DNA of 40,867 bases from a phage: the sequence record PQ821741.1; one strand, 5' to 3'. The notes beneath the pieces are model-generated. The model was not told where the DNA came from. It did not search any database and was given only the letters and a program-made list of their open reading frames with translations. The stretch's first letter is position 1. The number at the start of each line of letters is the position of its first letter. Below are positions 1-39,946 of this stretch, one piece after another. A program made the position numbers and the translations under genes.

Positions 1-31
1 ATGAAGTGGTGTGATGCAATCATACCGCTGA
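1..31. other. 31-nt segment that is the exact reverse complement of 40390-40420
   Basis: Manual reverse-complement comparison; adjacent to the terminal direct repeat. Confidence 0.85.
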
Positions 32-480
32 ATCCCTATAGAGTCAAGTCCTAGGGTATACCCATAAAGAGCCTCTAATGGTCTATCCTAAGGTATATAC
101 CTAAAGATAGGCCATCCTATCAGTGTCACCTAAAGAGGGTCTTAGAGATGGCCTAGGGAGTTCCTAGAGGGTCCTTTAAAATATACCATAAAAATCTGAG
201 TGACTATCTCACAGTGTACGGACCTAAAGTTCCCCCATAGGGGTACCTAAAGCCCAGCCAATCACCTAAAGTCAACCTTCGGTTGACCTTGAGGGTCCCT
301 AAGGGTTAGGGTTGACCCTTTGAGTGGGCCTTGGGTGTTACCTTGAGTGTCTCTCTGTGTCCCTATCTGTTACAGCCTCCTAAAGTATCCTCCTAAAGTA
401 TCCTCCTAAAGTCACCTCCTAAAGTCATTCCTACCGTCTACAACCTAAAGACTACACCTAAAGACCCATCAAGTCAACGC
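32..480. repeat. Left copy of 449-bp direct repeat shared with window end (wrap-around of genome ends)
   Basis: Identical to 40419-40867 except one mismatch (54 g vs 40441 a); offset 40387. Confidence 0.95.
207..364 (+). repeat. T7-type terminal repeat, left copy
   Basis: Begins TCTCACAGTGTACGGACC and ends CTCTCTGTGTCCCT as in T7; repeated at 40594-40751. Confidence 0.8.
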
Positions 481-1991: not shown

Positions 1992-2147
1992 ATGCCGGAC
2001 ACCAAGGACGTAATCCGTATCCTGCAAGCTCGCATCTATGAGCAACTCACGATTGACCTCTGGGAAGACGCTGAGGACTTGCTGAACGAGTACCTTGAGG
2101 AAGTCGAAGAAGAGGAAGAGGAAGACTACGCAGAGGATGAAGAGTAA
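1992..2147 (+). pseudogene. Ocr C-terminal fragment ORF created by the duplication (51 aa from internal Met)
   Basis: Identical to 3' 156 nt of gene 0.3; no convincing RBS. Confidence 0.4.
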
Positions 2148-2287
2148 TGGTTAAATACGGTCTAACAAGAGAAATGCTCCAAACGTACCGCGTGGCTATG
2201 GCTTATGGTGCTTCTTTCGGGTACTGTATGGCACAATTAGCACAGACATACCGAGCACGTAAGGCGATGTACGGTAATAGTAAGTGA
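2147..2287 (+). CDS. 0.4: Second identical copy of gene 0.4-like ORF
   Basis: Exact copy of 1737-1877 within the duplicated unit. Confidence 0.5.
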   Translation: MVKYGLTREMLQTYRVAMAYGASFGYCMAQLAQTYRARKAMYGNSK

Positions 2288-2355
2288 TAGGCTCAAGGTC
2301 GCTCCATGCGAGTGGCCTTTATGATTATCATTTAACATGCAATAGGACTAACACC

Positions 2356-2556
2356 ATGAGTAAACTTCTGGCAACCTCCAAAATCCAAGGCCAATGCACT
2401 GTAACGCTGCGTGAGTACTATCACGGGTCAATGGGATGCACCTATGTTGTGCGCTATGGCAAACAGGTCACACATTGGGTAAACCTGATTTTAGCGCAAG
2501 AGGAGTATCAAGCCTGTGTGATACACCAAGCAACATGTGCAGGTTGGAACGATTGA
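2356..2556 (+). CDS. Hypothetical early protein (66 aa)
   Basis: ATG after RNase III site; ORF MSKLLATSKIQGQC...; no T7 counterpart recognised. Confidence 0.5.
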   Translation: MSKLLATSKIQGQCTVTLREYYHGSMGCTYVVRYGKQVTHWVNLILAQEEYQACVIHQATCAGWND

Positions 2557-2574
2557 CAACAGCCTTCAAGTCTA

Positions 2575-2630
2575 CCAAGTGGTAAACTCAAGGTCGCTCC
2601 TAGCGAGTGGCCTTCATGATTATCACTTTA
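2575..2630 (+). promoter_or_regulatory. RNase III hairpin (R0.5-like)
   Basis: ctcaaggtcgctcctagcgagtggccttcatgattatc. Confidence 0.55.
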
Positions 2631-2644
2631 CTTACGAGGGAGTA

Positions 2645-2779
2645 ATGCATATGCTTACTATCGGTCTGCTCACCGCTCTAGGTCTAGCTGTAGGCGCATC
2701 CTTTGGGAAGTCTTTGGGTGTAGCTGTAGGCGCTTACTTGGTGGCTTGTATCATCACGGGAGCACTACGCAAATGTTGA
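2645..2779 (+). CDS. 0.5: Gene 0.5-like small membrane protein
   Basis: [22 protein letters not shown]...; hydrophobic; RBS gaggga upstream. Confidence 0.65.
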
Positions 2780-2949
2780 AACATTACGTTATGCCTATCC
2801 ACACTTCCAACGGGGCAACCGTATGCACACCTGATGGGTTCGCAATGAAACAGCGAATCGAACGCCTTAAGCGTGAACTGCGCATCAACCGCAAGATTAA
2901 CAAGATAGGTTCCAGCTATGATCATAACGAACATAAAGGACACACTGAA

Positions 2950-4029
2950 ATGAACATTACCGACATCATGAACGCTATCGACGCAATCAAAGCACTTCCA
3001 ATCTGTGAACTTGACAAGCGTCAAGGTATGCTTATCGACTTACTGGTCGAGATGGTCAACAGCGAAACGTGTGATGGCGAGATAACCGAACTGAATCAGG
3101 CACTTGAGCATCAAGATTGGTGGACTACCTTGAAGTGTCTCACGGCTGACGCTGGGTTCAAGATGCTTGGTAATGGTCACTTCTCGGCTGCTTATAGTCA
3201 CCCGCTGCTGCCCAACAGAGTGATTAAGGTGGGCTTTAAGAAAGAGGATTCAGGCGCAGCCTATACCGCATTCTGCCGCATGTATCAGGGCCGTGCCGGT
3301 ATCCCTAACGTCTACGATGTGCAGCGCCACGCTGGATGCTATACGGTGGTACTCGATGCACTGAATGATTGCGAGCGTTTCAACAATGATGAACATTATA
3401 AATACGCTGAGATTGCAAGCGACATCATTGACTACAAATCAGATGCGCACGATGGGCTAACTGGATGGGATGGCGAGTTCGTCGAGACTTGTAAGCTAAT
3501 CCGCAAGTTCTTTGAGGGCATCGCTTCGTTCGACATGCACAGCGGGAACATCATGTTCAGTGACGATGATGTACCATACATTACCGACCCGGTATCATTC
3601 TCGCAGAAGAAAGATGGTGGCGCATTCAGCATTGACCCTGAGGAACTCATCAAGGAAGTCGAGGAGGTCGCACACCAGCGAGCAATCGACCGCGCTAAGG
3701 AACGTAAGGCACGTCATGTGGGTCGAGTGGAGGCACGTAAAGTAAAGCGCCGTAACCGTAAGGCACGTAAAGCACACCAAGAGAAGCACAAGCGAATGGT
3801 TGCTGCGTGGCGCATGGCTGAGCGTCAGGAACGACGCAACCACGAGGTAGCTGTAGATGTACTGGGAAGGACCAATAACGCTATGCTCTGGGTCAACATG
3901 CTCGCTATGGACTTTAAGGCTCTTGAGGAACGAATTGCGGCGAACTGGTTTCAAGCTGACCGGATGACTATCGCTAACGGTCTTCCGCTCAACATCGACA
4001 AGCAACTTGACGCAATGCTAATGGGCTGA
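2950..4029 (+). CDS. 0.7: Gene 0.7 serine/threonine protein kinase and host shut-off protein
   Basis: 359 aa from [23 protein letters not shown], matches T7 gp0.7; an in-frame upstream 0.6-like reading (from 2773) has no intervening stop. Confidence 0.88.
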
Positions 4030-4095
4030 TAGTCTTATCTTACAGGTCATCTGACTGAGGGTGGCCTGAATAGATACGATTTACTAACTGGAAGA
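4030..4095 (+). promoter_or_regulatory. Probable RNase III site R1
   Basis: Position between 0.7 and gene 1; hairpin-capable ggtcat...gggtggcct. Confidence 0.35.
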
Positions 4096-4103
4096 GGCAC
4101 TAA

Positions 4104-6755
4104 ATGAACACGATTAACATCGCTAAGAACGACTTCTCTGACATCGAACTGGCTGCTATTCCGTTCAACACTCTGGCTGACCATTACGGTGAGCGCTTAG
4201 CTCGCGAACAGTTGGCCCTTGAGCATGAGTCTTACGAAATGGGTGAAGCACGATTCCGCAAGATGTTTGAGCGTCAACTTAAAGCTGGTGAGGTTGCGGA
4301 TAACGCTGCCGCTAAGCCTCTCATTACTACCCTACTCCCTAAAATGATTGCACGCATCAACGACTGGTTTGAGGAAGTGAAAGCTAAGCGCGGCAAACGC
4401 CCGACAGCCTTCCAGTTCCTGCAAGAAATCAAGCCGGAAGCTGTAGCGTACATCACCATTAAGACCACTCTGGCTTGCCTAACTAGCGCAGACAATACAA
4501 CCGTTCAGGCTGTAGCAAGCGCAATAGGTCGCGCAATTGAGGATGAGGCACGCTTCGGTCGTATCCGCGACCTTGAAGCTAAGCACTTCAAGAAAAACGT
4601 TGAGGAACAACTCAACAAGCGCGTAGGGCACGTCTACAAGAAAGCATTCATGCAGGTTGTCGAAGCGGACATGCTCTCTAAGGGTCTACTTGGTGGCGAG
4701 GCGTGGTCTTCGTGGCATAAGGAAGACTCCATTCACGTTGGGGTGCGCTGCATTGAGATGCTCATTGAGTCAACCGGAATGGTTAGCTTACATCGTCAAA
4801 ACGCTGGCGTAGTCGGTCAAGACTCTGAGACTATCGAACTCGCACCGGAATACGCTGAGGCTATCGCAACCCGTGCAGGTGCCCTAGCGGGTATCTCTCC
4901 TATGTTCCAGCCTTGCGTAGTTCCTCCTAAGCCTTGGACCGGTATTACTGGTGGAGGTTATTGGGCTAACGGTCGCCGTCCTCTGGCGCTGGTGCGTACT
5001 CACAGTAAGAAAGCACTGATGCGATACGAAGACGTTTACATGCCTGAGGTGTACAAAGCGATTAACATTGCGCAAAACACCGCATGGAAAATCAATAAGA
5101 AAGTCCTAGCGGTCGCCAACGTGATAACCAAGTGGAAGCACTGCCCTGTAGAGGACATCCCAGCGATTGAGCGTGAAGAACTCCCGATGAAACCGGAAGA
5201 CATCGACACGAATCCTGAGGCTCTCACCGCGTGGAAACGTGCCGCTGCCGCTGTGTACCGTAAAGACAAGGCACGCAAGTCTCGCCGTATCAGCCTTGAG
5301 TTCATGCTTGAGCAAGCCAACAAGTTCGCTAACCATAAGGCCATCTGGTTCCCTTACAACATGGACTGGCGTGGTCGCGTTTACGCTGTGTCAATGTTCA
5401 ACCCGCAAGGTAACGATATGACCAAAGGACTGCTGACGCTGGCTAAAGGTAAACCAATCGGCAAGGAAGGTTACTACTGGCTGAAAATCCACGGTGCAAA
5501 CTGCGCTGGCGTTGATAAAGTTCCGTTCCCTGAGCGCATCAAGTTCATTGAGGACAACCACGAGAACATCATGGCCTGCGCTAAGTCTCCTCTGGAAAAC
5601 ACTTGGTGGGCTGAGCAAGATTCTCCATTCTGCTTCCTAGCGTTCTGCTTTGAGTACGCTGGGGTACAGCACCACGGCCTGAGCTACAACTGCTCTCTTC
5701 CGCTGGCGTTCGATGGGTCTTGCTCCGGCATTCAGCACTTCTCCGCGATGCTTCTCGATGAGGTAGGCGGTCTTGCTGTTAACCTGCTGCCTAGTGCAAC
5801 AGTTCAGGACATCTACGGGATTGTCGCTAAGAAAGTCAATGTGATTCTGCAAGAAGATGTAATCAACGGGACCGACAACGAAGTAGTTACCGTGACTGAT
5901 GAGAACACTGGTGAAATCTCTGAGAAAGTCAAGCTGGGCACCAAGGCGCTGGCTGGTCAGTGGCTGGCTTATGGTGTTACTCGTAGTGTGACTAAGCGTT
6001 CAGTCATGACGCTGGCGTATGGGTCCAAAGAGTTCGGCTTCCGTCAACAAGTGCTGGAAGATACCATTCAGCCAGCTATTGATTCAGGCAAGGGTCTGAT
6101 GTTTACTCAACCGAATCAGGCTGCTGGGTACATGGCTAAGCTGATTTGGGAAGCTGTAAGTGTGACGGTGGTAGCTGCGGTTGAAGCAATGAACTGGCTC
6201 AAGTCTGCTGCTAAGCTGCTGGCTGCTGAGGTCAAAGATAAGAAGACTGGAGAGATTCTTCGCAAGCGTTGCGCTGTACACTGGGTGACTCCTGATGGCT
6301 TCCCTGTATGGCAGGAATACAAGAAGCCTATTCAGACTCGCTTGAACCTGATATTCCTCGGTCAGTTCCGTCTACAGCCGACCATTAACACAAACAAGGA
6401 TAGTGAGATTGACGCACACAAGCAGGAGTCCGGCATAGCTCCTAACTTTGTGCATAGCCAAGATGGTAGCCACCTACGTAAGACTGTAGTGTGGGCGCAC
6501 GAGAAGTACGGAATCGAATCGTTTGCACTGATTCACGACTCCTTCGGGACCATTCCGGCTGACGCTGCCAACCTGTTCAAAGCTGTGCGCGAAACTATGG
6601 TTGACACCTATGAGTCTTGTGATGTACTGGCTGACTTCTACGACCAGTTCGCTGACCAGTTGCATGAGTCTCAATTGGACAAAATGCCAGCACTTCCGGC
6701 TAAAGGTAACTTGAACCTCCAAGACATCCTTAAGTCAGACTTCGCGTTCGCGTAA
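4104..6755 (+). CDS. 1: T7 RNA polymerase (single-subunit DNA-directed RNA polymerase)
   Basis: 883 aa, MNTINIAKNDFSDIELAAIPFNTLADHYGERLAREQ...; identical length to T7 gp1. Confidence 0.98.
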   Translation: MNTINIAKNDFSDIELAAIPFNTLADHYGERLAREQLALEHESYEMGEARFRKMFERQLKAGEVADNAAAKPLITTLLPKMIARINDWFEEVKAKRGKRPTAFQFLQEIKPEAVAYITIKTTLACLTSADNTTVQAVASAIGRAIEDEARFGRIRDLEAKHFKKNVEEQLNKRVGHVYKKAFMQVVEADMLSKGLLGGEAWSSWHKEDSIHVGVRCIEMLIESTGMVSLHRQNAGVVGQDSETIELAPEYAEAIATRAGALAGISPMFQPCVVPPKPWTGITGGGYWANGRRPLALVRTHSKKALMRYEDVYMPEVYKAINIAQNTAWKINKKVLAVANVITKWKHCPVEDIPAIEREELPMKPEDIDTNPEALTAWKRAAAAVYRKDKARKSRRISLEFMLEQANKFANHKAIWFPYNMDWRGRVYAVSMFNPQGNDMTKGLLTLAKGKPIGKEGYYWLKIHGANCAGVDKVPFPERIKFIEDNHENIMACAKSPLENTWWAEQDSPFCFLAFCFEYAGVQHHGLSYNCSLPLAFDGSCSGIQHFSAMLLDEVGGLAVNLLPSATVQDIYGIVAKKVNVILQEDVINGTDNEVVTVTDENTGEISEKVKLGTKALAGQWLAYGVTRSVTKRSVMTLAYGSKEFGFRQQVLEDTIQPAIDSGKGLMFTQPNQAAGYMAKLIWEAVSVTVVAAVEAMNWLKSAAKLLAAEVKDKKTGEILRKRCAVHWVTPDGFPVWQEYKKPIQTRLNLIFLGQFRLQPTINTNKDSEIDAHKQESGIAPNFVHSQDGSHLRKTVVWAHEKYGIESFALIHDSFGTIPADAANLFKAVRETMVDTYESCDVLADFYDQFADQLHESQLDKMPALPAKGNLNLQDILKSDFAFA

Positions 6756-6763
6756 CGTCAAAT

Positions 6764-6786
6764 TAATACGACTCACTATAGAGGGA
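6764..6786 (+). promoter_or_regulatory. T7 promoter phi1.1A
   Basis: taatacgactcactatagaggga. Confidence 0.85.
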
Positions 6787-6790
6787 CAAA

Positions 6791-6835
6791 CTCGAGGTCA
6801 TTCGCAAGAGTGGCCTTTATGGTTGACCTTCTTCC
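6791..6835 (+). promoter_or_regulatory. RNase III site R1.1
   Basis: ctcgaggtcattcgcaagagtggcctttatggttgacc. Confidence 0.5.
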
Positions 6836-6838
6836 GGT

Positions 6839-6861
6839 TAATACGACTCACTATAGGAGAA
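6839..6861 (+). promoter_or_regulatory. T7 promoter phi1.1B
   Basis: taatacgactcactataggagaa. Confidence 0.85.
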
Positions 6862-6939
6862 CCTTAAGGTTTAACTTTAAGACCCTTAAGTGTTAATTAG
6901 AGATTTAAAGTAAAGAATTACTAAGAGAGGACTTTAAGT
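6862..6939 (+). other. AT-rich region downstream of phi1.1A/B, candidate primary origin of replication
   Basis: AT-rich tract placed as in T7 primary origin (inference by position). Confidence 0.5.
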
Positions 6940-7068
6940 ATGCGTAACTTCGAAAAGATGACCAAACGTTCTAACCGTAACGCTCATGACTTCGAGGAAA
7001 CCAAAGGTCGCAAGTTTAATAAACCATTACGAACCCGTTCACATAAACGCTGCTGGGAGGGTCAGTAA
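6940..7068 (+). CDS. 1.1: Gene 1.1 protein (42 aa, basic)
   Basis: MRNFEKMTKRSNRNAHDFEE... Confidence 0.8.
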   Translation: MRNFEKMTKRSNRNAHDFEETKGRKFNKPLRTRSHKRCWEGQ

Positions 7069-7069
7069 G

Positions 7070-7327
7070 ATGGTACGTTTATATAGTGGGAACTTGAATG
7101 ACTTCAAGGCTGCTTGCAACAGGCTCTACCAGTTAGACTTTGCTGTTATTTGTGATGAATGGTACGATGCTTACAAACGCCTTGAGTGTATGCGCCTACG
7201 CGTAGAGGACAGGGCTGGAAATCTGATTGATACCAATACGTTCTGTCACCACGATGAAGACGTCTTGTACAATACGTGTACTGACTGGCTGAACCGCATG
7301 TACGACCAGTTGAAGGACTGGAAGTAA
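7070..7327 (+). CDS. 1.2: Gene 1.2, inhibitor of host dGTPase
   Basis: 85 aa MVRLYSGNLNDFKAACNRLYQLDFAVI... ends ...MYDQLKDWK as T7 gp1.2. Confidence 0.88.
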   Translation: MVRLYSGNLNDFKAACNRLYQLDFAVICDEWYDAYKRLECMRLRVEDRAGNLIDTNTFCHHDEDVLYNTCTDWLNRMYDQLKDWK

Positions 7328-7347
7328 TACGACTCAGTATAGGGATA
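7325..7347 (+). promoter_or_regulatory. T7 promoter phi1.3
   Basis: taatacgactcagtatagggata. Confidence 0.8.
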
Positions 7348-7362
7348 ACCCAGAGGTACTTC

Positions 7363-7800
7363 ATGAGAATACATTTTGACATTATGAGTCCATCCTTTCT
7401 CTCATGGGACAATGGTCGCCCAGTAGGAGCCTCTATTCGTAATGGCTATAAGAGGGTTAGATGTGGTGGTAAATGGTTAAATCATCACGTCCTAATCTGG
7501 GAACATTTTAACGGCCCAATCCCTGAGGGAATGGAGATAGACCACATTGACCGTAACAGAGGTAATAACGCACCAAGTAACCTGCGTCTTGTGACTCGCT
7601 CTCAAAATAGCAGAAACAAGTCTACACATAAGAACAACAAGTCTGGAATAAAGGGAGTGTACTGGCACAAACATAGAGAATACTGGTATGGTCAGTGTAA
7701 GAAAAATGGTCAAACATTCAGAACATCCTGCTGCCACACAAAGGAACAGGCGGCTTTACTACTTACTAAACTTAGAGAGGAAATAGGTTATGCAGATTAA
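7363..7800 (+). CDS. HNH homing endonuclease (HNH nuclease motif plus AP2-like DNA-binding region)
   Basis: HHVLIWEHFNGPIPEGMEIDHIDRNRGNNAPSNLRLVTRSQNSRN and GIKGVYWHKHREYWYGQ motifs; overlaps ligase start by 11 nt; not in T7 at this locus. Confidence 0.8.
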   Translation: MRIHFDIMSPSFLSWDNGRPVGASIRNGYKRVRCGGKWLNHHVLIWEHFNGPIPEGMEIDHIDRNRGNNAPSNLRLVTRSQNSRNKSTHKNNKSGIKGVYWHKHREYWYGQCKKNGQTFRTSCCHTKEQAALLLTKLREEIGYAD

Positions 7801-8863
7801 AACAATGCCATTTAAAGCTGTGTCTTTCGTAGAGTCTGCCATTAAGAAAGCTCTGGACAACGCTGGGTATCTTATAGCCGACATCAAGTACGATGGTGTA
7901 CGCGGGAACATCTGCGTAGACAATACCGCTAACAGTTGCTGGCTCTCTCGTGTATCAAAAACGATTCCGGCGCTTTCTTACCTTAATGGGTTCGATACAC
8001 GTTGGCAGCGTCTACTAAAGGATGACCGTTGCTTCTACCCTGATGGCTTCATGCTGGATTGCGAACTTATGGTCAAGGGAGTGGACTTCAATACTGGCTC
8101 CGGCCTTCTGCGGACCAAGTGGCTCAACAAGAAGAACATGCAATTCGATATTGGCGGCCCATATGAATCGTGGGACGCGAGCATGAAGGGACTTCCTTTC
8201 GGCCTTGACCCGAACTTACTAACAGTCAAGCTGTACGCCATCCTTCCGCTGCACATCGTGGAGTCTGGAGAAGACTGTGACGTTATGACGTTGCTAATGC
8301 AGGAACACGTTAAGAACATGCTGCCTCTGCTACAGGAATACTTCCCTGAAATCGAATGGCAAGCGGCTGAGTCTTACGAGGTCTACGACATGGTTGAACT
8401 ACAGCAACTGTACGAGAAGAAGCGTGAAGAAGGTCATGAGGGTCTCATTGTGAAAGACCCGATGTGTATCTATAAGCGCGGCAAGAAGTCCGGCTGGTGG
8501 AAGATGAAGCCAGAGAATGAGGCCGATGGTGTCGTTGTGGGACTCAACTGGGGAACTCCCGGTCTTGCCAACGAGGGAAAGGTGATTGGCTTCGAGGTTC
8601 TCCTTGAGTCTGGTCGAGTGGTATCCGCCAACAACATCTCTCAGGCACTTATGGAGGAGTTCACTAAGACTGTAGCTGAGGCAAGCGGTTACACACTAAC
8701 AGGTGGACCCGTAGTAATTCAAGATGGTCAACCAAAGGTCAACCCTTACGAGGGCTGGGCGTGCCAGATTAGCTACATGGAGGAAACCCCAGACGGCTCT
8801 CTGCGTCACCCATCGTTCGTAATGTTCCGTGGCACCGAGGACAACCCTCAAGAGAAAATGTAA
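7790..8863 (+). CDS. 1.3: ATP-dependent DNA ligase
   Basis: 357 aa; KYDGVRG adenylation motif; C-terminus ...DGSLRHPSFVMFRGTEDNPQEKM as T7 ligase. Confidence 0.95.
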   Translation: MQIKTMPFKAVSFVESAIKKALDNAGYLIADIKYDGVRGNICVDNTANSCWLSRVSKTIPALSYLNGFDTRWQRLLKDDRCFYPDGFMLDCELMVKGVDFNTGSGLLRTKWLNKKNMQFDIGGPYESWDASMKGLPFGLDPNLLTVKLYAILPLHIVESGEDCDVMTLLMQEHVKNMLPLLQEYFPEIEWQAAESYEVYDMVELQQLYEKKREEGHEGLIVKDPMCIYKRGKKSGWWKMKPENEADGVVVGLNWGTPGLANEGKVIGFEVLLESGRVVSANNISQALMEEFTKTVAEASGYTLTGGPVVIQDGQPKVNPYEGWACQISYMEETPDGSLRHPSFVMFRGTEDNPQEKM

Positions 8864-8865
8864 AC

Positions 8866-8900
8866 ACACTGGCTCACCTTAGGGTGGGCCTTTCTGCGTT
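8866..8900 (+). terminator. Early terminator TE (rho-independent)
   Basis: ggctcacc-ttag-ggtgggcc hairpin followed by tttctgcgttt. Confidence 0.85.
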
Positions 8901-8923
8901 TAATACGACTCACTAAAGGAGGT
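8901..8923 (+). promoter_or_regulatory. T7 promoter phi1.5
   Basis: taatacgactcactaaaggaggt. Confidence 0.85.
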
Positions 8924-8930
8924 ACACACC

Positions 8931-9077
8931 ATGATGTACTTAATACCATTATTCATCCCTTACGAGGGCTGGGCGTGCCAGATTAGCTACATGGAGGAAA
9001 CCCCAGACGGCTCTCTGCGTCACCCATCGTTCGTAATGTTCCGTGGCACCGAGGACAACCCTCAAGAGAAAATGTAA
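8931..9077 (+). pseudogene. Chimeric ORF from the duplication: 9 N-terminal codons of the small gene fused in frame to the last 39 codons of ligase
   Basis: MMYLIPLFI + PYEGWACQISYMEETPDGSLRHPSFVMFRGTEDNPQEKM; has the native RBS ggagg. Confidence 0.6.
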
Positions 9078-9079
9078 AC

Positions 9080-9114
9080 ACACTGGCTCACCTTAGGGTG
9101 GGCCTTTCTGCGTT
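9080..9114 (+). terminator. Second copy of TE terminator (in duplication)
   Basis: Identical to 8866-8900. Confidence 0.8.
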
Positions 9115-9137
9115 TAATACGACTCACTAAAGGAGGT
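9115..9137 (+). promoter_or_regulatory. Second copy of phi1.5 promoter (in duplication)
   Basis: Identical to 8901-8923. Confidence 0.8.
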
Positions 9138-9144
9138 ACACACC

Positions 9145-9234
9145 ATGATGTACTTAATACCATTATTCATCGTCATCCTAGGATGCCTTGCGCTCACCTG
9201 TAGCGACGACGATATGCCAGATGGTCACGCTTAA
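9145..9234 (+). CDS. Small protein, gene 1.4/1.5-like (29 aa)
   Basis: MMYLIPLFIVILGCLALTCSDDDMPDGHA; RBS aggagg. Confidence 0.7.
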   Translation: MMYLIPLFIVILGCLALTCSDDDMPDGHA

Positions 9235-9254
9235 TACGACTCACTAAAGGAGAC
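9232..9254 (+). promoter_or_regulatory. T7 promoter phi1.6
   Basis: taatacgactcactaaaggagac. Confidence 0.85.
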
Positions 9255-9259
9255 ACTAT

Positions 9260-9520
9260 ATGTTCCAACTTCATTACAACAAAAGCATTAAGAGTTTCAC
9301 GGTTCGCCGTGCTGACCGCTCAATCCTATGTGCGAGCGAACGTCGAGCTAAGTTACCTCTTATTGGTGACACAGTTCCTTTGGCACCGAGCGTCCACATC
9401 ATTATCACTCGTGGTGACTTTGAGAAAGCAATAGACAAGAAACGTCCGGTTCTTAGTGTGGCTGTGACCCGCTTCCCGTTCGTCCGTCTGTTACTCAAAC
9501 GTATCAAGGAGGTGTTCTGA
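9260..9520 (+). CDS. 1.6: Gene 1.6 protein
   Basis: 86 aa [21 protein letters not shown]...LLKRIKEVF. Confidence 0.85.
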
Positions 9521-10043
9521 TGGGATGCATAGCGTGCTTAGAGAAAGACGACCGTTACCCACATACCTGTAATAAAGGAGCTAACGATATGACCGAACGT
9601 GAACAAGAGATTATCATTAAGTTAATAGACAATAACGAAGGTCGCCCAGATGATTTGAATGGCTGCGGACTACTCTGCTCTAATGTCCCTTGTCACCTCT
9701 GCCCAGCAAATAACAATCAAAAGATAACCTTAGGTGAAATCCGAGCGATGGACCCACGTAAACCTAAACTGGATAAACCAGAGGTAACTCCTACAGATGA
9801 CCAGCAAGCAACCGAGTCAATCGAAGGTGTCACTAAGCCTTCCCATTACATGCTGTTCGACGACATTGAGGCTATCGAAGTGATTGCCCGTTCAATGACT
9901 CGTGAGCAGTTCAAAGGTTATTGCTTCGGGAACATCTTAAAGTACAGACTACGTGCTGGTAAGAAATCCGAACTGGCTTACTTAGAGAAAGACATGGCTA
10001 AGGCCAACTTCTATGGAGAACTCTATGAGCAACATAAAGACAA

Positions 10044-10056
<13 letters not shown>
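9520..10056 (+). CDS. 1.7: Gene 1.7 nucleotide kinase
   Basis: 178 aa; TGATG overlap with 1.6; matches T7 gp1.7. Confidence 0.85.
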
Positions 10057-10561
<505 letters not shown>

Positions 10562-10629: not shown

Positions 10630-11331
10630 ATGGCTAAGAAGATTTTCACCTCTGCGCTGGGTACTGCTGAACCTTACGCTTACATCTCTAAGCCGGACTA
10701 CGGCAACGAAGAGCGCGGCTTTGGGAACCCTCGTGGTGTCTACAAAGTTGACCTGACTATTCCCAACAAAGACCCGCGCTGCCAGCGTATGGTCGATGAA
10801 ATCGTGAAGTGTCACGAAGAGGCTTATGCTGCTGCCGTTGAGGAATACGAAGCGAATCCACCTGCGGTAGCTCGCGGCAAGAAACCGCTGAAACCGTATG
10901 AGGGTGACATGCCGTTCTTCGATAACGGTGACGGTACGACTACCTTTAAGTTCAAATGCTACGCGTCTTTCCAAGACAAGAAGACCAAAGAGACCAAGCA
11001 CATCAATCTGGTTGTGGTTGACTCCAAAGGTAAGAAGATTGAAGACGTTCCGATTATCGGTGGCGGCTCTAAGCTGAAAGTCAAGTACTCTCTGGTCCCG
11101 TACAAGTGGAACACTGCTGTGGGTGCGAGCGTTAAGCTGCAACTTGAATCCGTAATGCTGGTAGAACTGGCTACCTTTGGTGGCGGTGAAGACGATTGGG
11201 CTGACGAAGTTGAAGAGAACGGCTATGTTGCCTCTGGTTCTGCCAAAGCGAGCAAACCACGCGACGAAGAAAGCTGGGACGAAGACGACGAAGAGTCCTA
11301 CGAAGAAGAAGACGAAGACGGAGACTTCTAA
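10630..11331 (+). CDS. 2.5: Single-stranded DNA-binding protein gp2.5
   Basis: 233 aa; acidic C-terminal tail ...EEEDEDGDF. Confidence 0.95.
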   Translation: MAKKIFTSALGTAEPYAYISKPDYGNEERGFGNPRGVYKVDLTIPNKDPRCQRMVDEIVKCHEEAYAAAVEEYEANPPAVARGKKPLKPYEGDMPFFDNGDGTTTFKFKCYASFQDKKTKETKHINLVVVDSKGKKIEDVPIIGGGSKLKVKYSLVPYKWNTAVGASVKLQLESVMLVELATFGGGEDDWADEVEENGYVASGSAKASKPRDEESWDEDDEESYEEEDEDGDF

Positions 11332-11787
11332 GTGGCTGGCGCATACGCTGCGCGTGGTATCCGAAAGGTCGGGACATTCCGTTCCGGCCTAGAAGATAAG
11401 GTCTCTAAGCAGCTAGAGGGTAAGGGCATTAAGTTCGACTATGAACTGTGGAAAATCCCTTACGTTGTCCCTGCGAGCAACCATGTGTATACTCCAGACT
11501 TCCTGCTGCCTAACGGAATCTTCATTGAAACCAAAGGTTTATGGGAGAGTGACGACCGAAAGAAACACTTATTGATTCGCGAACAGTTTCCCGAACTGGA
11601 CATCCGTCTGGTTTTCTCAAGCTCGCGCACCAAGCTGTACAAAGGGTCTCCGACCAGCTACGGTGAGTGGTGCGAGAAGCACGGTATTCTGTTTGCTGAC
11701 AAATTAATTCCTGTGGAATGGCTCAAAGAACCCAAAAAGGAGGTGCCATTTGACAAGCTGAAACAATCGAAGGGAGGTAAGAAATAA
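11332..11787 (+). CDS. 3: Endonuclease I (Holliday junction resolvase)
   Basis: 151 aa, GTG start directly after 2.5 stop; ...PDFLLPNGIFIETKGLWESDDRKKHLL... Confidence 0.9.
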   Translation: MAGAYAARGIRKVGTFRSGLEDKVSKQLEGKGIKFDYELWKIPYVVPASNHVYTPDFLLPNGIFIETKGLWESDDRKKHLLIREQFPELDIRLVFSSSRTKLYKGSPTSYGEWCEKHGILFADKLIPVEWLKEPKKEVPFDKLKQSKGGKK

Positions 11788-15120: not shown

Positions 15121-17352
15121 ATGATCGTTTCTGACATCGAAGCTAACGCCCTCTTAGAGAGCGTCACTAAGTTCCACTGCGGGGTTATCTACGACTACTC
15201 TACCGCTGAGTACGTAAGCTACCGTCCGAGTGACTTCGGTGCGTATCTGGATGCGCTGGAAGCCGAGGTTGCACGAGGCGGTCTTATTGTGTTCCACAAC
15301 GGTCACAAGTATGACGTTCCTGCATTGACAAAACTGGCAAAGCTGCAATTGAACCGAGAGTTCCACATTCCTCGTGAGAACTGTATCGACACCCTTGTGC
15401 TGTCACGCTTGATTCACTCTAACCTCAAGGACACCGACATGGGTCTTCTGCGTTCCGGTAAACTTCCGGGTAAACGCTTTGGGTCTCACGCTTTGGAGGC
15501 GTGGGGTTATCGCTTAGGCGAGATGAAGGGTGAATACAAGGACGACTTTAAGCGTATGCTTGAAGAGCAGGGTGAAGAATACGTTGACGGAATGGAGTGG
15601 TGGAACTTCAACGAAGAGATGATGGCCTATAACGTTCAGGACGTTGTGGTCACTAAGGCTCTCCTTGAGAAATTACTGTCAGACAAGCACTATTTCCCTT
15701 TAGGTTTAGAGCACGTTAATTATGATTCTATAATCTTTTGGAAAGACTCTATCGAAGCTATTGATGTTGAACATAGAGCAGCTTGGTTGTTAGCTAAACA
15801 GGAGCGTAATGGTTTCCCATTTGACGCTAAGGCAATCGAGGAGTTGTACGTAGAGTTAGCTGCTCGCCGCTCTGAGTTGCTCCGCAAATTGACCGAAACG
15901 TTCGGCTCATGGTATCAGCCCAAAGGTGGCACCGAAATGTTCTGCCATCCGAGGACTGGTAAGCCACTGCCCAAATACCCTCGCATTAAGACACCTAAAG
16001 TTGGTGGTATCTTTAAGAAGCCTAAGAACAAGGCACAGCGAGAAGGCCGTGAGCCTTGCGAACTGGATACCCGCGAGTACGTTGCTGGTGCCCCTTACAC
16101 CCCAGTTGAGCATGTAGTGTTTAACCCATCGTCTCGTGACCACATCCAGAAGAAACTCCAAGAGGCTGGATGGGTCCCAACCAAGTACACCGATAAGGGT
16201 GCGCCTGTGGTGGACGATGAGGTACTCGAAGGAGTACGTGTAGATGACCCTGAGAAGCAAGCTGCAATCGACCTCATTAAAGAATACTTGATGATTCAGA
16301 AGCGAATCGGACAGTCTGCTGAGGGAGACAAGGCGTGGCTTCGTTACGTTGCCGATGATGGTAAGATTCACGGCTCTGTAAACCCTAACGGGGCAGTTAC
16401 TGGTCGCGCTACCCATGCTTTCCCCAACCTTGCGCAAATTCCGGGTGTGCGTTCACCTTATGGAGAGCAGTGTCGCGCTGCTTTTGGTGCTGAACATCAC
16501 CTAGACGGTATTACTGGTAAGCCTTGGGTTCAGGCGGGTATCGACGCATCCGGTCTGGAACTACGCTGCTTGGCCCACTTCATGGCTCGCTTTGATAACG
16601 GCGAGTACGCTCACGAGATTCTTAATGGAGACATCCACACTAAGAACCAGATGGCTGCCGACGCATCCGGTCTGGAACTACGCTGCTTGGCCCACTTCAT
16701 GGCTCGCTTTGATAACGGCGAGTACGCTCACGAGATTCTTAATGGAGACATCCACACTAAGAACCAGATGGCTGCCGAATTGCCTACCCGTGATAACGCC
16801 AAGACGTTCATCTATGGGTTCCTCTACGGTGCTGGCGATGAGAAGATTGGGCAGATTGTCGGTGCTGGTAAAGAGCGTGGTAAGGAACTCAAGAAGAAAT
16901 TCCTTGAGAACACCCCTGCGATTGCGGCACTCCGAGAGTCTATCCAACAGACACTTGTTGAGTCCTCTCAGTGGGTAGCTGGCGAACAGCGAGTCAAGTG
17001 GAAACGCCGCTGGATTAAAGGTCTGGATGGTCGCAAGGTACACGTTCGTAGTCCTCACGCTGCCCTGAATACCCTACTGCAATCCGCTGGTGCGCTCATC
17101 TGCAAACTGTGGATTATCAAGACCGAAGAGATGCTCGTAGAGAAAGGCTTGAAGCATGGCTGGGATGGGGACTTTGCGTACATGGCGTGGGTCCACGATG
17201 AAATCCAAGTGGGTTGTCGTACCGAAGAGATTGCTCAGGTGGTCATTGAGACAGCACAAGAAGCGATGCGCTGGGTTGGAGACCACTGGAACTTCCGGTG
17301 TCTTCTGGATACAGAAGGTAAGATGGGTCCTAATTGGGCCGTATGTCACTAA
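15121..17352 (+). CDS. 5: DNA polymerase (family A), carrying an internal 39-aa in-frame tandem duplication
   Basis: 743 aa against 704 in T7; otherwise near-identical to T7 gp5. Confidence 0.95.
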   Translation: MIVSDIEANALLESVTKFHCGVIYDYSTAEYVSYRPSDFGAYLDALEAEVARGGLIVFHNGHKYDVPALTKLAKLQLNREFHIPRENCIDTLVLSRLIHSNLKDTDMGLLRSGKLPGKRFGSHALEAWGYRLGEMKGEYKDDFKRMLEEQGEEYVDGMEWWNFNEEMMAYNVQDVVVTKALLEKLLSDKHYFPLGLEHVNYDSIIFWKDSIEAIDVEHRAAWLLAKQERNGFPFDAKAIEELYVELAARRSELLRKLTETFGSWYQPKGGTEMFCHPRTGKPLPKYPRIKTPKVGGIFKKPKNKAQREGREPCELDTREYVAGAPYTPVEHVVFNPSSRDHIQKKLQEAGWVPTKYTDKGAPVVDDEVLEGVRVDDPEKQAAIDLIKEYLMIQKRIGQSAEGDKAWLRYVADDGKIHGSVNPNGAVTGRATHAFPNLAQIPGVRSPYGEQCRAAFGAEHHLDGITGKPWVQAGIDASGLELRCLAHFMARFDNGEYAHEILNGDIHTKNQMAADASGLELRCLAHFMARFDNGEYAHEILNGDIHTKNQMAAELPTRDNAKTFIYGFLYGAGDEKIGQIVGAGKERGKELKKKFLENTPAIAALRESIQQTLVESSQWVAGEQRVKWKRRWIKGLDGRKVHVRSPHAALNTLLQSAGALICKLWIIKTEEMLVEKGLKHGWDGDFAYMAWVHDEIQVGCRTEEIAQVVIETAQEAMRWVGDHWNFRCLLDTEGKMGPNWAVCH
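16542..16775 (+). repeat. Exact in-frame tandem duplication, 117-bp unit (16542-16658 and 16659-16775)
   Basis: 120 nt identity at offset 117 with cga microhomology; encodes DASGLELRCLAHFMARFDNGEYAHEILNGDIHTKNQMAA twice. Confidence 0.95.
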
Positions 17353-17814
17353 TTCTAAAGGAGAAATTATTATGGCTATGACCAAGAAATTTAAAGTGTC
17401 CTTCGATGTTACCGCTAAGATGCCATCTGACGTTCAGGCAATCTTAGAGAAAGACATGCTACACCTGTGTAAGCAGGTTGGCTCCGGTGCTATCGTGCCA
17501 GATGGTAAACAGAAGGAAATGATTGTACAGTTCCTGACATATGGTTGGAGACCACTGGAACTTCCGGTGTCTTCTGGATACAGAAGGTAAGATGGGTCCT
17601 AATTGGGCCGTATGTCACTAATTCTAAAGGAGAAATTATTATGGCTATGACCAAGAAATTTAAAGTGTCCTTCGATGTTACCGCTAAGATGCCATCTGAC
17701 GTTCAGGCAATCTTAGAGAAAGACATGCTACACCTGTGTAAGCAGGTTGGCTCCGGTGCTATCGTGCCAGATGGTAAACAGAAGGAAATGATTGTACAGT
17801 TCCTGACATATGGT
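17277..17814 (+). repeat. Exact tandem duplication, 269-bp unit (17277-17545 and 17546-17814)
   Basis: 272 nt identity at offset 269 with ggt microhomology; spans gene 5 3' end, intergenic RBS and 5' 56 codons of gene 5.5. Confidence 0.95.
17372..17590 (+). pseudogene. Truncated gene 5.5 copy fused out of frame to a duplicated gene 5 tail (72 aa)
   Basis: First 56 codons identical to gene 5.5, then frame-shifted tail WRPLELPVSSGYRR*. Confidence 0.7.
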
Positions 17815-19652: not shown

Positions 19653-19919
19653 ATGTGTTTCTCACCGAAAATTAAAACTCCAAAGATGGATACCAATCAG
19701 ATTCGAGCCATTGAGCCAGCGCCTCTGACCCAAGAAGTGTCAAGCGTAGAGTTCGGTGGGTCTTCTGATGAGACGGATACCGAAGGCACCGAAATGTCTG
19801 GACGCAAAGGACTCAAGGTCGAACGTGATGATTCAGTAGCGAAGTATAAAGCCAGCGATAATGGCTCCGCTCGTATGAAATCTTCAATCCGTAAGTCCGC
19901 ATTCGGAGGTAAGAAGTGA
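19653..19919 (+). CDS. 6.7: Gp6.7 (virion protein)
   Basis: MCFSPKIKTPKMDTNQIRAIEPAPLTQEV... Confidence 0.8.
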   Translation: MCFSPKIKTPKMDTNQIRAIEPAPLTQEVSSVEFGGSSDETDTEGTEMSGRKGLKVERDDSVAKYKASDNGSARMKSSIRKSAFGGKK

Positions 19920-20320
19920 TGTCTGAGTTCACATGTGTGGAGGCCAAGAGTCGCTTCCGTGCAATCCGGTGGACTGTGGAACACCTTGGGTTGCCTAAAG
20001 GATTCGAAGGACACTTTGTGGGCTACAGCCTCTACGTAGATGAAGTAATGGACATGTCTGGTTGCCGTGAAGAGTACATTCTGGACTCTACCGGAAAACA
20101 TGTAGCGTACTTCGCGTGGTGCGTAAGCTGTGATATTCACCACAAAGGAGACATTCTGGATGTAACGTCAGTTGTCATTAATCCTGAGGCAGACCCTAAG
20201 GGCTTACAACGATTCCTAGCGAAACGCTTTAAGTACCTTGCAGAACTCCACGATTGCGATTGGGTGTCTCGTTGTAAACATGAAGGCGAGACAATGCGTG
20301 TATACTTTAAGGAGGTATAA
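19919..20320 (+). CDS. 7: Gp7 (host-range/virion protein)
   Basis: 133 aa MSEFTCVEAKSRFRAIRWTVEHLGLPKGFE... Confidence 0.85.
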   Translation: MSEFTCVEAKSRFRAIRWTVEHLGLPKGFEGHFVGYSLYVDEVMDMSGCREEYILDSTGKHVAYFAWCVSCDIHHKGDILDVTSVVINPEADPKGLQRFLAKRFKYLAELHDCDWVSRCKHEGETMRVYFKEV

Positions 20321-35052: not shown

Positions 35053-35736
35053 ATGGCTAACGTAATTAAAACAGTTTTGACTTACCCGTTAGATGGCTCC
35101 ACTCGTGATTTTAATATCCCGTTTGAGTATCTAGCCCGTAAGTTCGTAGTGGTAACTCTTATTGGTGTAGACCGCAAGGTCCTTACGATTAATACAGACT
35201 ACCGTTTTGCTACTCGCACTACCATCTCATTAACCAAGGCTTGGGGTCCAGCGGATGGATATACTACCATCGAGTTGCGCCGAGTAACCTCAACTACCGA
35301 CCGATTGGTTGACTTTACAGATGGTTCAATCCTCCGTGCATATGACCTTAACGTGGCTCAGATTCAGACTATGCATGTGGCAGAAGAGGCACGTGACTTA
35401 ACTGCGGATACAATCGGTGTCAATAGTGACGGTCACTTGGATGCCCGTGGTCGTCGAATTGTGAACCTAGCGAACGCTGTAGATGATTATGATGCCATCA
35501 ACCTACGTCAGGTTAAGCTGTGGAACAATAGTGCGTATCAATCAGCCGTGAACGCGAAGACCTCTGAGACGAACGCTAAGACCTCTGAGACAAACGCCTT
35601 AACATACCGCAATTCTGCTGCTGCTAGTGCCACCGCTGCAAGCACTTCTGAGACGAACGCGAAGACCTCTGAGACGAACGCGAAGACCTCTGAGACGAAC
35701 GCGAAGACCTCTGAGATTACTGCGAAGTTCCTATAA
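35053..35736 (+). pseudogene. 17: Tail fibre gene 17, N-terminal part, ending at premature TAA
   Basis: MANVIKTVLTY...FNIPFEYLARKFVVVTLIGVDRKVLT... matches T7/T3 gp17 N-terminus; frame ends ...TSEITAKFL* at 35734-36. Confidence 0.85.
35556..35723 (+). repeat. 21-bp tandem repeats encoding the heptad TSETNAK (2 units, 42-bp spacer, 4 units)
   Basis: gaagacctctgagacgaacgc repeated; two adjacent units are nucleotide-identical. Confidence 0.85.
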
Positions 35737-35868
35737 GGATGCTGCTGCTTCAAGTGCCACTGCTTCTGCTGCTAGTGCAGCTACCTGTAAGGCAGTTGCT
35801 ATAAGGATGCTGCTGCTTCAAGTGCCACTGCTTCTGCTGCTAGTGCAGCTACCTCTAAGGCAGAGGCC
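35733..35868 (+). repeat. Imperfect 68-bp tandem repeat inside gene 17 (35733-35800 and 35801-35868)
   Basis: First ~55 nt identical, 3' ends differ; copy 1 is +1 relative to the gene frame and carries TAA/TAG/TAA stops. Confidence 0.85.
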
Positions 35869-36489
35869 GACCGCGCGGAGCTACGTGCAAACCAAGCAGG
35901 TGGAGCTAGGGTTATAAACGGAATCTATCCAGATTCTAGTGGAAGCGTAACACTCACTACTGATGACATCAAAGACCCATCTGGTGTTACCATAATGATG
36001 GCTGTTCGATCTATGATTGACGCTATCTTTCCTGTCGGTATTCGCATGGATTGGCCTCTCGCTTCCCTTCCCGATAATCCAACACTTGGTGTTAAGTTTC
36101 TTAGGTTGGATGGGTCTAGCTTTGATAAAACACAGTACCCCAAGCTGGCTGCCATATATCCGTCTGGAGTTTTGCCAGATTTACGTGGTGAGTTTATTCG
36201 TGGCTGGGATGACGGGCGCGGGGTTGATGGTGGGCGCGTTGTTTTAACTGGTCAGAGCCAATCAGTACAGCAGCATACTCATGGTCTAGCGATGGCATAC
36301 AGTTCAGAGAGCGGTTACAAGGACAAGCTAGGCGCTGGCCCTAACTCTGACATGATTCCGATTAAAGATATGATTAAAGTAACCACTTTTACTGGTTCTG
36401 GTGAGTATTACTTAAAGGCGAATGATTCAACAGGTGTTGAAACTCGCCCGCGCAACGTCGCATTTAACTTCATCGTGAGGGCCGCATAA
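35803..36489 (+). pseudogene. 17: Tail fibre gene 17, C-terminal part with tip 1 (in frame with N-terminal part but separated by stops)
   Basis: KDAAASSATASAASAATSKAEADRAE...GEFIRGWDDGRGVDGGR...TRPRNVAFNFIVRAA*; no own start or RBS. Confidence 0.8.
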
Positions 36490-36841
36490 TGACACAGGCA
36501 AAATTAAACAGTGAATTTATTGCCACAGTAGCGGGTGATATGAAGATTCTAGTGGAAGCGTAACACTCACTACTGATGACATCAAAGACCCATCTGGTGT
36601 TACCATAATGATGGCTGTTCGATCTATGATTGACGCTATCTTTCCTGTCGGTATTCGCATGGATTGGCCTCTCGCTTCCCTTCCCGATAATCCAACACTT
36701 GGTGTTAAGTTTCTTAGGTTGGATGGGTCTAGCTTTGATAAAACACAGTACCCCAAGCTGGCTGCCATATATCCGTCTGGAGTTTTGCCAGATTTACGTG
36801 GTGAGTTTATTCGTGGCTGGGATGACGGGCGCGGGGTTGAT
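35931..36841 (+). repeat. 298-bp exact direct repeat (35931-36228 and 36544-36841), period 613 bp
   Basis: Base-by-base identical; both copies encode ...DSSGSVTLTTDDIKDPSGVTIMMAVRSMIDAIFPVGIRMDW...GEFIRGWDDGRGVD. Confidence 0.95.
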
Positions 36842-37123
36842 AGAGGGCGCGGATTAATGAGTGCTCAGGGCGATGCCATTCGGAATATTACTGGTCGCAT
36901 TAGGGGCGGGTCATCTGGGTCTTATGGTAAAATCTTCCTGGATGAATCTAGTGGTGCTTTTTTCCCTTCCGGTGAGGATGGAGAACAGTTCCATCCTTCA
37001 TCGACACCTCTACCTTATGGGAGATACAACACTGTAGATTTTGATGCTAGCAGGGTAGTCCCAACTGCCGACGAAAACCGCCCAAGAAACGTTGCGTGGA
37101 ATATGATTGTGAGGGCATCGTAA
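36539..37123 (+). other. Promoterless, startless second tail-fibre C-terminal cassette (tip 2)
   Basis: Reading frame opens after TGA at 36536-38; shared 298-bp stem then divergent tip ...NRPRNVAWNMIVRAS*; no RBS; first ATG is the internal Met-Met at 36608. Confidence 0.75.
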
Positions 37124-38174: not shown

Positions 38175-39946
38175 TGAGGAAAGGTGTATCCGCTCAGTCC
38201 AATCGTAATGCGCTCGTTGTGGCGCAACTAAAGGGTGACTTCGTGGCGTTCCTGTTCGTCTTATGGAAGGCGTTAAACCTGCCAGTACCAACTAAGTGCC
38301 AAATTGACATGGCTAAGGTGCTGGCGAATGGGGACAACAAGAAGTTCATCCTACAGGCTTTCCGTGGTATCGGTAAGTCGTTCATCACGTGTGCGTTCGT
38401 TGTGTGGTCACTATGGAGGGACCCTCAGTTGAAGATACTTATCGTATCAGCTTCTAAAGAACGTGCAGACGCTAACTCCATATTCATCAAGAACATCATT
38501 GACCTGCTACCGTTTCTCAGTGAGTTGAAGCCGAGACCCGGACAGCGTGACTCTGTGATTAGCTTTGATGTTGGTCCTGCGAGTCCTGACCACTCTCCTA
38601 GTGTGAAATCAGTAGGTATCACTGGTCAGTTAACTGGTAGTCGTGCTGATATTATCATTGCAGATGACGTTGAGATTCCATCTAACAGCGCAACTATGGG
38701 TGCCCGTGAGAAGCTATGGACTCTTGTTCAGGAGTTCGCTGCGTTGCTTAAACCGCTGCCTTCCTCACGAGTTATCTACCTTGGCACACCTCAGACCGAG
38801 ATGACTCTCTATAAGGAACTTGAGGATAACCGTGGGTACACAACCATTATCTGGCCCGCTCTGTATCCAAGGACACGTGAAGAGAACCTCTATTACTCAC
38901 AGCGTCTTGCTCCTATGTTACGCGCTGAGTACGATGAGAACCCTGAGGCCCTCGCTGGGACTCCTACGGACCCTGTGCGCTTTGACCGTGATGACCTCCG
39001 TGAGCGTGAGTTGGAATACGGTAAGGCTGGCTTCACACTACAGTTCATGCTTAACCCGAACCTGAGTGATGCCGAGAAGTACCCTCTGAGGCTCCGTGAC
39101 GCTATCGTAGCGGCCTTAGACTTAGAGAAGGCACCAATGCATTACCAGTGGCTTCCGAACCGTCAGAACCTCATTGAGGACCTTCCTAACGTGGGCCTTA
39201 AGGGTGATGACCTGCACACCTACCACGATTGCTCCAATAACTCTGGTCAGTATCAACAGAAGATTCTGATTATTGACCCAAGTGGTCGTGGTAAGGACGA
39301 AACAGGTTACGCTGTGCTGTACACCCTCAACGGTTACATCTACCTTATGGAAGCTGGAGGTTTCCGTGATGGTTACTCTGATAAGACCCTTGAGTTGCTC
39401 GCTAAGAAAGCTAAGCAATGGGGAGTCCAGACGGTCGTCTATGAGAGTAACTTCGGTGACGGTATGTTTGGTAAGGTATTCAGTCCTATCCTTCTTAAAC
39501 ACCACAACTGTGCTATGGAAGAGATTCGTGCTCGTGGTATGAAGGAGATGCGCATTTGTGATACCCTTGAGCCAGTCATGCAGACTCACCGACTTGTCAT
39601 TCGTGATGAGGTCATTAGGGCCGACTATCAGTCCGCTCGTGATGTAGACGGTAAGCATGACGTTAAGTATTCACTGTTCTACCAGATGACTCGTATCACT
39701 CGTGAGAAAGGCGCTCTGGCCCATGATGACCGATTGGATGCCCTTGCGCTAGGCGTTGAGTATCTCCGTGAGTCCATGCAGTTGGATTCCGTTAAGGTCG
39801 AAGGTGAAGTGCTTGCTGACTTCCTTGAGGAACATATGATGCGTCCTACGGTTGCTGCTACGCATATCATTGAGATGTCTGTGGGAGGAGTTGATGTGTA
39901 CTCTGAGGACGATGAGGGCTACGGTACGTCTTTCATTGAGTGGTGA
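38174..39946 (+). CDS. 19: Terminase large subunit (DNA maturase B)
   Basis: 590 aa; T7 gp19 homolog. Confidence 0.96.

Follow-up and report, generated by a model that had tools for sequence, protein, structure and literature searches.

Does the small open reading frame (ORF) that separates a T7-type promoter from the DNA ligase gene in a phage genome encode a homing endonuclease, and has it moved between related phages? This question is raised by sequence record PQ821741.1, a phage DNA of 40,867 nucleotides (nt) that we refer to as the window, in which an ORF of 145 amino acids (aa) at 7363-7800 lies between the phi1.3 promoter and ligase gene 1.3. The original prediction, made from the letters alone, had read this ORF as a free-standing HNH homing endonuclease with an AP2-like DNA-binding segment. 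Our analysis leads to a similar answer. Most probably, the ORF is an active free-standing HNH homing endonuclease with an I-HmuI-like His-Me finger and an AP2-type domain, carried by a ~440-bp cassette that is fixed between phi1.3 and ligase in T7-group phages, and whose cleavage activity we infer.

The protein and its place in front of the ligase gene

To gain insight into the encoded protein, whose translation is exactly as quoted earlier, we compared it with domain, family and structure collections. Pfam HNH_3 matched aa 42-84 with E=7.4e-22 and 77.2 bits (cut-off 24.8), and the best PHROG families were all annotated as HNH endonuclease, with PHROG 99 on top (E=3e-47). A profile search with the orthologues returned I-HmuI (PDB 1U3E) as the single solved relative by sequence (E=6.5e-8), in an alignment that spans the segment with the catalytic D-H and two Asn residues. 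These matches confirm the HNH nuclease identity. Moreover, D60, H61, N73 and N82 are invariant among the orthologues. An AlphaFold model built from the orthologue alignment (mean predicted local distance difference test score, pLDDT, of 83.8) consists of an N-terminal beta region and a beta-beta-alpha core, followed by three strands and a helix at aa 98-140. The catalytic His, the Asp/Asn metal ligands and the structural Asn are found within the beta-beta-alpha fold, and the C-terminal three-stranded sheet and helix of the model are those of the AP2/ERF fold. Three strands and a helix behind the HNH core thus give the HNH(HNN)-AP2 architecture of free-standing phage endonucleases (PMC2248197). 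The predicted AP2-like segment is therefore supported by its modelled fold but not by the Pfam threshold, as the AP2 match at aa 94-120 is weak (E=0.007, 17 bits versus a cut-off of 33.3). The ratio of non-synonymous to synonymous substitution (dN/dS) was ~0.05-0.13 against orthologues for those pairs with an estimable dS, and ~0.07 against close orthologues. The ORF is thus under purifying selection, which argues for a working protein.

The gene is free-standing, being a separate ORF between genes with its own start and its own ribosome-binding site (GAGG at 7353-7356, 6 nt 5' of the ATG). Rfam revealed no intron or other RNA family, with group I/II introns sought within 6700-9300, and an intron-encoded endonuclease was ruled out on these grounds. 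The ORF starts 21 nt past the +1 G of phi1.3 and therefore directly behind this promoter, as had been proposed; the promoter (TAATACGACTCAGTATAGGGA, 7325-7345) can be aligned base by base with T7 phi1.3, and its first 3 nt are the TAA stop of gene 1.2, in the window as in T7. At the other end, the ligase ATG at 7790 falls within the 3' end of the endonuclease ORF, whose stop ends at 7800. This reproduces the 11-nt overlap noted before. The ligase ribosome-binding site GAGAGGA (7774-7780) is likewise embedded in the endonuclease coding sequence.

Homology with endonuclease-free genomes ends at ~7348. By blastn, window 2922-7348 corresponds to T7 1993-6415 and the window from 7790 to T7 from 6478, so that the 441 bp at 7349-7789 stand for 62 bp of T7 (nt 6416-6477). 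An insertion between phi1.3 and ligase is thus correct as to position, but not as a pure insertion, since 441 bp replace 62 bp. The replaced T7 segment comprises a strong hairpin as well as the ribosome-binding site of ligase; the T7 leader folds with -23 kcal/mol (z -3.3), and that of the endonuclease-free phage ESh2 with -21 kcal/mol (z -3.8). Folding of the window revealed no equivalent strong hairpin, neither in the endonuclease leader nor in the sequence before the ligase ATG. We take the T7 hairpin to be the RNase III site R1.3 of the T7 map. In carriers, the cassette took over the expression signals of the ligase gene, with the hairpin gone and the ribosome-binding site and start codon inside the endonuclease ORF, and for this reason ligase translation may now depend on a selfish gene.

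Distribution and mosaicism of the cassette

Among the 40 best phage records matching the locus, one carries the gene (vB_Yep_9) and the rest align across a clean gap. A tblastn search of 50,697 phage records yielded four with an orthologue of at least 74% identity, i.e., vB_Yep_9 (98%) and the Teetrevirus phages ChM-G5, Sekstaphage-1 and VSG32 (75%). Furthermore, a large protein collection contained 11 clusters at 66-97% identity, and the exact window protein was found on six ENA contigs. Every metagenomic contig that we inspected encodes RNA polymerase, 1.1, 1.2, HNH and ligase in this order, and all orthologues (66-98% aa identity) sit between gene 1.2 and ligase, overlapping the ligase start. 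The carriers are a small minority of T7-like phages, T3-like phages and two further lineages; none of 50 IMG/VR ligase loci carries an orthologue. A conserved, non-mobile gene across the group is at odds with these counts (1/40 and 0/50). The presence of the gene is patchy among close relatives and always at the same genomic site, as expected of a mobile gene. An IMG/VR scan with the endonuclease protein itself returned distant relatives only (at most 54% identity over most of the protein) in unrelated contexts, and was of no use for defining the family.

The orthologues differ from the window copy in their ends. The protein of Yersinia phage vB_Yep_9 (PV596790.1, XUE03821.1; 98% aa identity) occupies the same position and is annotated "HNH endonuclease", but a 1-nt deletion in an A-run (L001 ~2300) frameshifts its AP2-like C-terminus and leaves 140 aa. 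As this 140-aa form recurs on several independent metagenomic contigs (proteins P0008, P0021 and P0022), it is probably a real decaying variant and not a sequencing error. The orthologues of Klebsiella phage ChM-G5 and Escherichia phage Sekstaphage-1 (WPH66028.1/WNV46631.1; 75% aa identity) are also found at the same position, but the Teetrevirus copies are 151 aa long, stand behind a T3-type promoter and extend 29 nt into the ligase gene. In Klebsiella phage VSG32 (L007 1928-2488), the ligase frame runs for ~31 codons and is followed in frame by a second HNH_3 endonuclease (186-aa ORF). With the body of the ligase missing, this phage thus has two tandem endonuclease genes and apparently no ligase.

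A sliding comparison of the locus reveals a mosaic. Over most of ~7318-~7969, the window is 94-100% identical to the carriers vB_Yep_9, L069 and L071, versus 30-70% over the second half of gene 1.2 and past 7970 within the ligase. In the flanks of this tract, the window instead matches the endonuclease-free phages ESh2/C5 at 87-100%. As the tract is alike and the flanks are unlike, the cassette, together with the initial 60-180 nt of ligase, sits in a foreign backbone. This pattern fits the expected product of homing with co-conversion, judging from the sequence comparison, and an element that together with its adjacent tract is more alike than the backbone is what horizontal transfer with co-conversion leaves behind. 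The homing-endonuclease turnover between relatives that the original prediction had suggested is thus supported by rarity, by a fixed site and by a cassette far more alike than its flanks.

Other endonuclease genes were observed around the ligase gene as well. At the gene 1.2/ligase junction, 4 of the 50 IMG/VR loci contain another HNH_3 gene, which encodes 138 aa with zinc-binding Cys motifs; with two unrelated HNH families at this junction, the site is a hotspot. In several relatives, HNH_3 genes also lie directly 3' of ligase (L071 1918-2169; L093 and L126 ~2522-2803; L009, phage RDN8.1, 1678-1920), so that the ligase gene can be bracketed by endonuclease genes. The long gap between gene 1.2 and ligase in L080 was rejected as another insertion, as it came from a mis-placed end of gene 1.2.

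A candidate target in the first ligase codons

The leaders 5' of ligase vary between lineages, and the ligase codons for K-T-N-P-F/Y-K-A (AAGACYAAYCCNTTYAARGC) are near-constant in endonuclease-free genomes. In the window, the Asn codon, which is ligase codon 6/7, has become ATG at 7805-7807. It is lost in all 14 carrier loci, replaced by ATG (the window type), ATT, GTC, GCG or TCG, and is retained in 36 of the 47 endonuclease-free loci (lost in 11). Fisher's test gave p=2e-7 by locus and p=0.0017 with the five carrier lineages counted once each, neither value being corrected for phylogeny. Between a carrier and its nearest endonuclease-free relative, the differences cluster in ~16-20 nt around the Asn codon and are followed by ~40 identical bases. 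The endonuclease-free consensus occurs once in T7 (6487-6506) and is absent from the window, even when 3 mismatches are allowed. The pattern at the Asn codon is correlative and fits target-site immunity, with the first ligase codons as the putative recognition site. An origin of the Asn change from the overlapping endonuclease frame applies to the Teetrevirus copies; it was ruled out for the window, L072 and L074, where the stop precedes the codon. Two further observations concern this codon. L101 (1350-1570) is endonuclease-free and has a normal leader hairpin, but contains the same TCG (Ser) allele as the related carriers L074-L077, which could represent a resistant allele without endonuclease or the outcome of endonuclease loss. 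Moreover, the Asn codon of ligase is missing from 2 of the 4 loci with the 138-aa HNH gene as well, where L081 has AGC and L108 has GCG.

We propose the following route of homing. The endonuclease gene would head the unit that T7 RNA polymerase transcribes from phi1.3 and through which ligase is expressed as well. When different phages infect the same cell, the protein would bind the cassette-free allele and nick or cut it at or near the conserved 5' sequence of ligase (AAGACYAAYCCNTTYAAAGC); on T7 DNA, the predicted place is at or near AAGACTAACCCGTTTAAAGC. Recombinational repair off the carrier genome would then copy the cassette and the adjoining ligase sequence into the cut genome. The carrier itself would be spared because its target sequence is altered, with the Asn codon replaced and the upstream 62 bp gone. 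On a wider scale, the gene 1.2/ligase junction might be a contested homing site, at which the 145-aa HNH-AP2 and the 138-aa zinc-finger HNH proteins both recognise the first ligase codons, the repeated, independent replacements of several nucleotides in the Asn codon record an ongoing contest of cutting and resistance that includes resistant alleles of the L101 type, and ligase translation may have become dependent on a selfish gene. We regard this broader picture as conceivable but on balance doubtful.

Several points weigh against the interpretation as an active homing endonuclease that recognises the ligase codons. The Pfam match to AP2 lies under its threshold, and cutting as such, its mode (nicks or double-strand breaks) and the true recognition site are all deductions from sequence. 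Between genera, the divergence of the endonuclease (66-75% aa identity) roughly tracks that of the ligase (66-69%), so that a long vertical residence with losses fits as well as repeated homing. The change of the Asn codon could simply mark the right-hand end of a co-inherited cassette. Lastly, endonuclease-free genomes with non-Asn codons exist (Ser, Lys; TCG in L101), and the codon is therefore not diagnostic. In a variant of the proposal, which we consider rather unlikely, the same homing endonuclease recognises a site in the replaced 62-bp leader (hairpin AAGGTC...GGCCTT and ligase ribosome-binding site). Carriers would then be immune because the site is absent, and the codon changes would be hitch-hiking donor sequence or a recombination end-point. 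This would be the classic route to immunity by an insertion that disrupts its target, and the hairpin is indeed found in three lineages among genomes without the endonuclease, whereas all carriers lack it. However, the leaders differ greatly among the T7-like, T3-like and L100-like lineages, across which the ligase stretch AAGACYAAYCC.TTYAAAGC is nearly constant, and each lineage altered the same codon differently (1-3 nt), which is unexpected for hitch-hiking alone.

In a further explanation, the gene would be a domesticated accessory nuclease that was inherited vertically from an old T7-group lineage and lost by most of its descendants. It would no longer be mobile and would serve the phage in, e.g., the breakdown of host DNA, replication or the competition with phages that infect the same cell. 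The strong purifying selection, the divergence between genera in parallel with ligase, and the fixed position with its translational overlap onto ligase would all agree with this. Yet, within Teseptimavirus the cassette is 94-100% identical between genomes that diverge by 20-60% in gene 1.2 and in the body of ligase, and a cassette so alike between such unlike flanks needs horizontal transfer by recombination. Moreover, the gene is extremely rare among close relatives, and a second, unrelated HNH gene is found at the same site elsewhere, as expected of a homing hotspot. We thus judge domestication to be improbable. That the homing endonuclease gene survives in the window as an inactive remnant undergoing decay appears very improbable: decay does happen, as seen from the 140-aa frameshifted form that lacks the AP2 part in vB_Yep_9 and several metagenomic contigs, but the copy in the window is full length, with intact catalytic residues, a confident fold and the low dN/dS against close orthologues given above.

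Known endonucleases and further features of the window

T7 itself encodes four endonuclease-like genes elsewhere in its genome. According to Pfam, gp2.8, gp3.8 and gp7.7 belong to HNH_3 and gp5.3 is a PD-(D/E)XK endonuclease. As had been stated before, the window lacks all four: in tblastn and blastn comparisons with T7, genes 2.8, 3.8, 5.3 and 7.7 are absent at the T7 positions and their neighbours are joined directly. T7 9861-10277, 11214-11585, 16469-16833 and 19844-20239 have no counterpart in the window, in which nothing lies between phi3.8 and gene 4. The sole match in the window to gp3.8 (50%, aa 15-90) and to gp7.7 (32%) is ORF 7363-7800. Orthology with gp3.8 was ruled out, as only the said part of gp3.8 aligns and the locus is a different one. 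The window gene shares with gp2.8, gp3.8 and gp7.7 the HNH_3 family, a small size, a free-standing nature and a place just 5' of essential replication or morphogenesis genes; unlike it, the T7 genes are located before genes 3, 4 and 8, and the similarity is confined to the HNH core. Judging from these alignments, the window gene and the three T7 genes are paralogues, not orthologues. A scan of the window-specific segments for further endonuclease genes found none; the ORFs there encode ocr, tail-fibre and DUF3310 proteins.

In structure, the closest known protein is I-HmuI of Bacillus phage SPO1 (PDB 1U3E), which the modelled fold of the window protein matches. I-HmuI nicks one strand. It differs from the window gene in being encoded in a group I intron and in a C-terminal DNA-binding part that is not AP2. 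In architecture, the free-standing HNN/HNH-AP2 endonucleases of the Xanthomonas phages Xp10, Xop411 and OP1 resemble the window gene (PMC2248197): their HNH core is of the H-N-N type, lacks CX2C dyads and is followed by an AP2 domain, and like the window family they are free-standing and patchy, with intact and truncated forms. Unlike in the window, however, these genes reside in unrelated siphoviruses, in several dispersed copies per genome and without a tie to ligase. Free-standing endonucleases of T4-type phages and of ICP1 lie at boundaries of genetic exchange beside essential genes, where they cut the nuclease-free allele near their own insertion point and repair co-converts the flanks (PMC10448857); we propose that the window gene may work in the same way. 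The Seg and Mob enzymes differ from it, as most of them are of the GIY-YIG type or of other HNH subtypes.

A patchy occurrence of endonuclease genes among T7-like phages has been described more than once (PMC4925675, PMC8861465, PMC10448857), so that the concept is well documented and unchanged by our data. In the literature on an endonuclease between genes 1.2 and 1.3 or on vB_Yep_9, we found no study of the window gene or its named orthologues. A few GenBank records already annotate the gene generically as "HNH endonuclease", and it is an uncharacterised member of the ordinary free-standing HNH-AP2 type. What our analysis mainly adds is a clear candidate target together with a candidate immunity polymorphism in T7 gene 1.3. 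If true, this would provide a compact and tractable homing system in the best-understood phage, made up of a nuclease of 145 aa, a 20-bp candidate target in T7 gene 1.3 and alleles that are naturally resistant. Such a system could serve to measure the effect of a homing endonuclease on mosaicism and marker exclusion in T7-like phages, a group with many members in therapy cocktails, and could provide small HNH-AP2 nucleases with a new specificity.

The window represents a near-complete Teseptimavirus genome with ~91-93% identity to T7 and relatives across the first 25 kb, and a search of the phage collection found no record identical to it. A T7-type RNA polymerase gene at 4104-6755 is followed by homologues of gene 1.1 and gene 1.2. 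The features of the locus are listed in Table 1.

Table 1 Features at and around the endonuclease locus; positions refer to the window unless another locus is named.
Feature	Position	Strand	Basis or remark
Gene 1.2 homologue (dGTPase inhibitor), left neighbour of the endonuclease ORF	7070-7327	+	tblastn of T7 gp1.2, 77% identity
phi1.3-type T7 RNA polymerase promoter, TAATACGACTCAGTATAGGGATAA	7325-7347	+	+1 = G7342; alignment with T7, ESh2 and vB_Yep_9; promoter regular-expression match
Probable free-standing HNH-AP2 homing endonuclease ORF, 145 aa, ATG start	7363-7800	+	Pfam HNH_3, PHROG, profile search, model
HNH (His-Me finger) catalytic core, aa 42-84	7486-7614	+	
AP2-like DNA-binding domain, aa 94-141, three beta strands then helix	7642-7785	+	
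DNA ligase gene (1.3)	7790-8863	+	tblastn with T7; ATG at 7790
Segment without T7 counterpart, 441 bp	7349-7789	+	blastn against T7
Variant ligase codons 4-10, AAAACAATGCCATTTAAAGC	7799-7818	+	putative recognition site, protected form
Tract common to the window and the T7-like carriers vB_Yep_9, L069 and L071, ~88-100% identity	7318-7969	+	sliding-window identities
138-aa zinc-finger HNH_3 gene	L081 1088-1504; L104, L105, L108 1079-1495		T7/T3-like genomes

Beyond this locus, the window contains five tandem duplications of 99-100% identity that are found nowhere in T7, i.e., at 1582-2401 (period 410 bp), 8739-9166 (214 bp), 10044-10369 (163 bp), 16542-16775 (117 bp) and 17274-17811 (269 bp). 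The three that we checked in detail have merely 3 nt in common at the junction. The 214-bp duplication concerns the 3' end of ligase. The 117-bp duplication is an in-frame repeat of 39 codons, with the DASGLELR segment among them, in DNA polymerase gene 5. The 269-bp duplication comprises the last part of gene 5 and the first part of gene 5.5, which is precisely the place of gene 5.3 in T7. All five may be real or assembly artefacts. The ends of the window (1-480 and 40594-40867) resemble the ends of an assembly that runs over a concatemer junction: nt 1-37 correspond to T7 39568-39604 in reverse complement, nt 5-364 match the right end of T7, T7 nt 1 aligns at 207, and the last ~270 nt repeat the left end, with the final 40 nt recurring at 441. 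Finally, the tail-fibre region (35053-37123) is unlike that of T7 and split into several ORFs. A 227-aa ORF (35053-35736) encodes the T7 tail-fibre N-terminal domain, and two further ORFs of 164 aa (35995-36489) and 171 aa (36608-37123), 613 bp apart, each encode a phage Tail Collar domain. This arrangement could reflect frameshifts, a diverged duplication or alternative receptor-binding tips.
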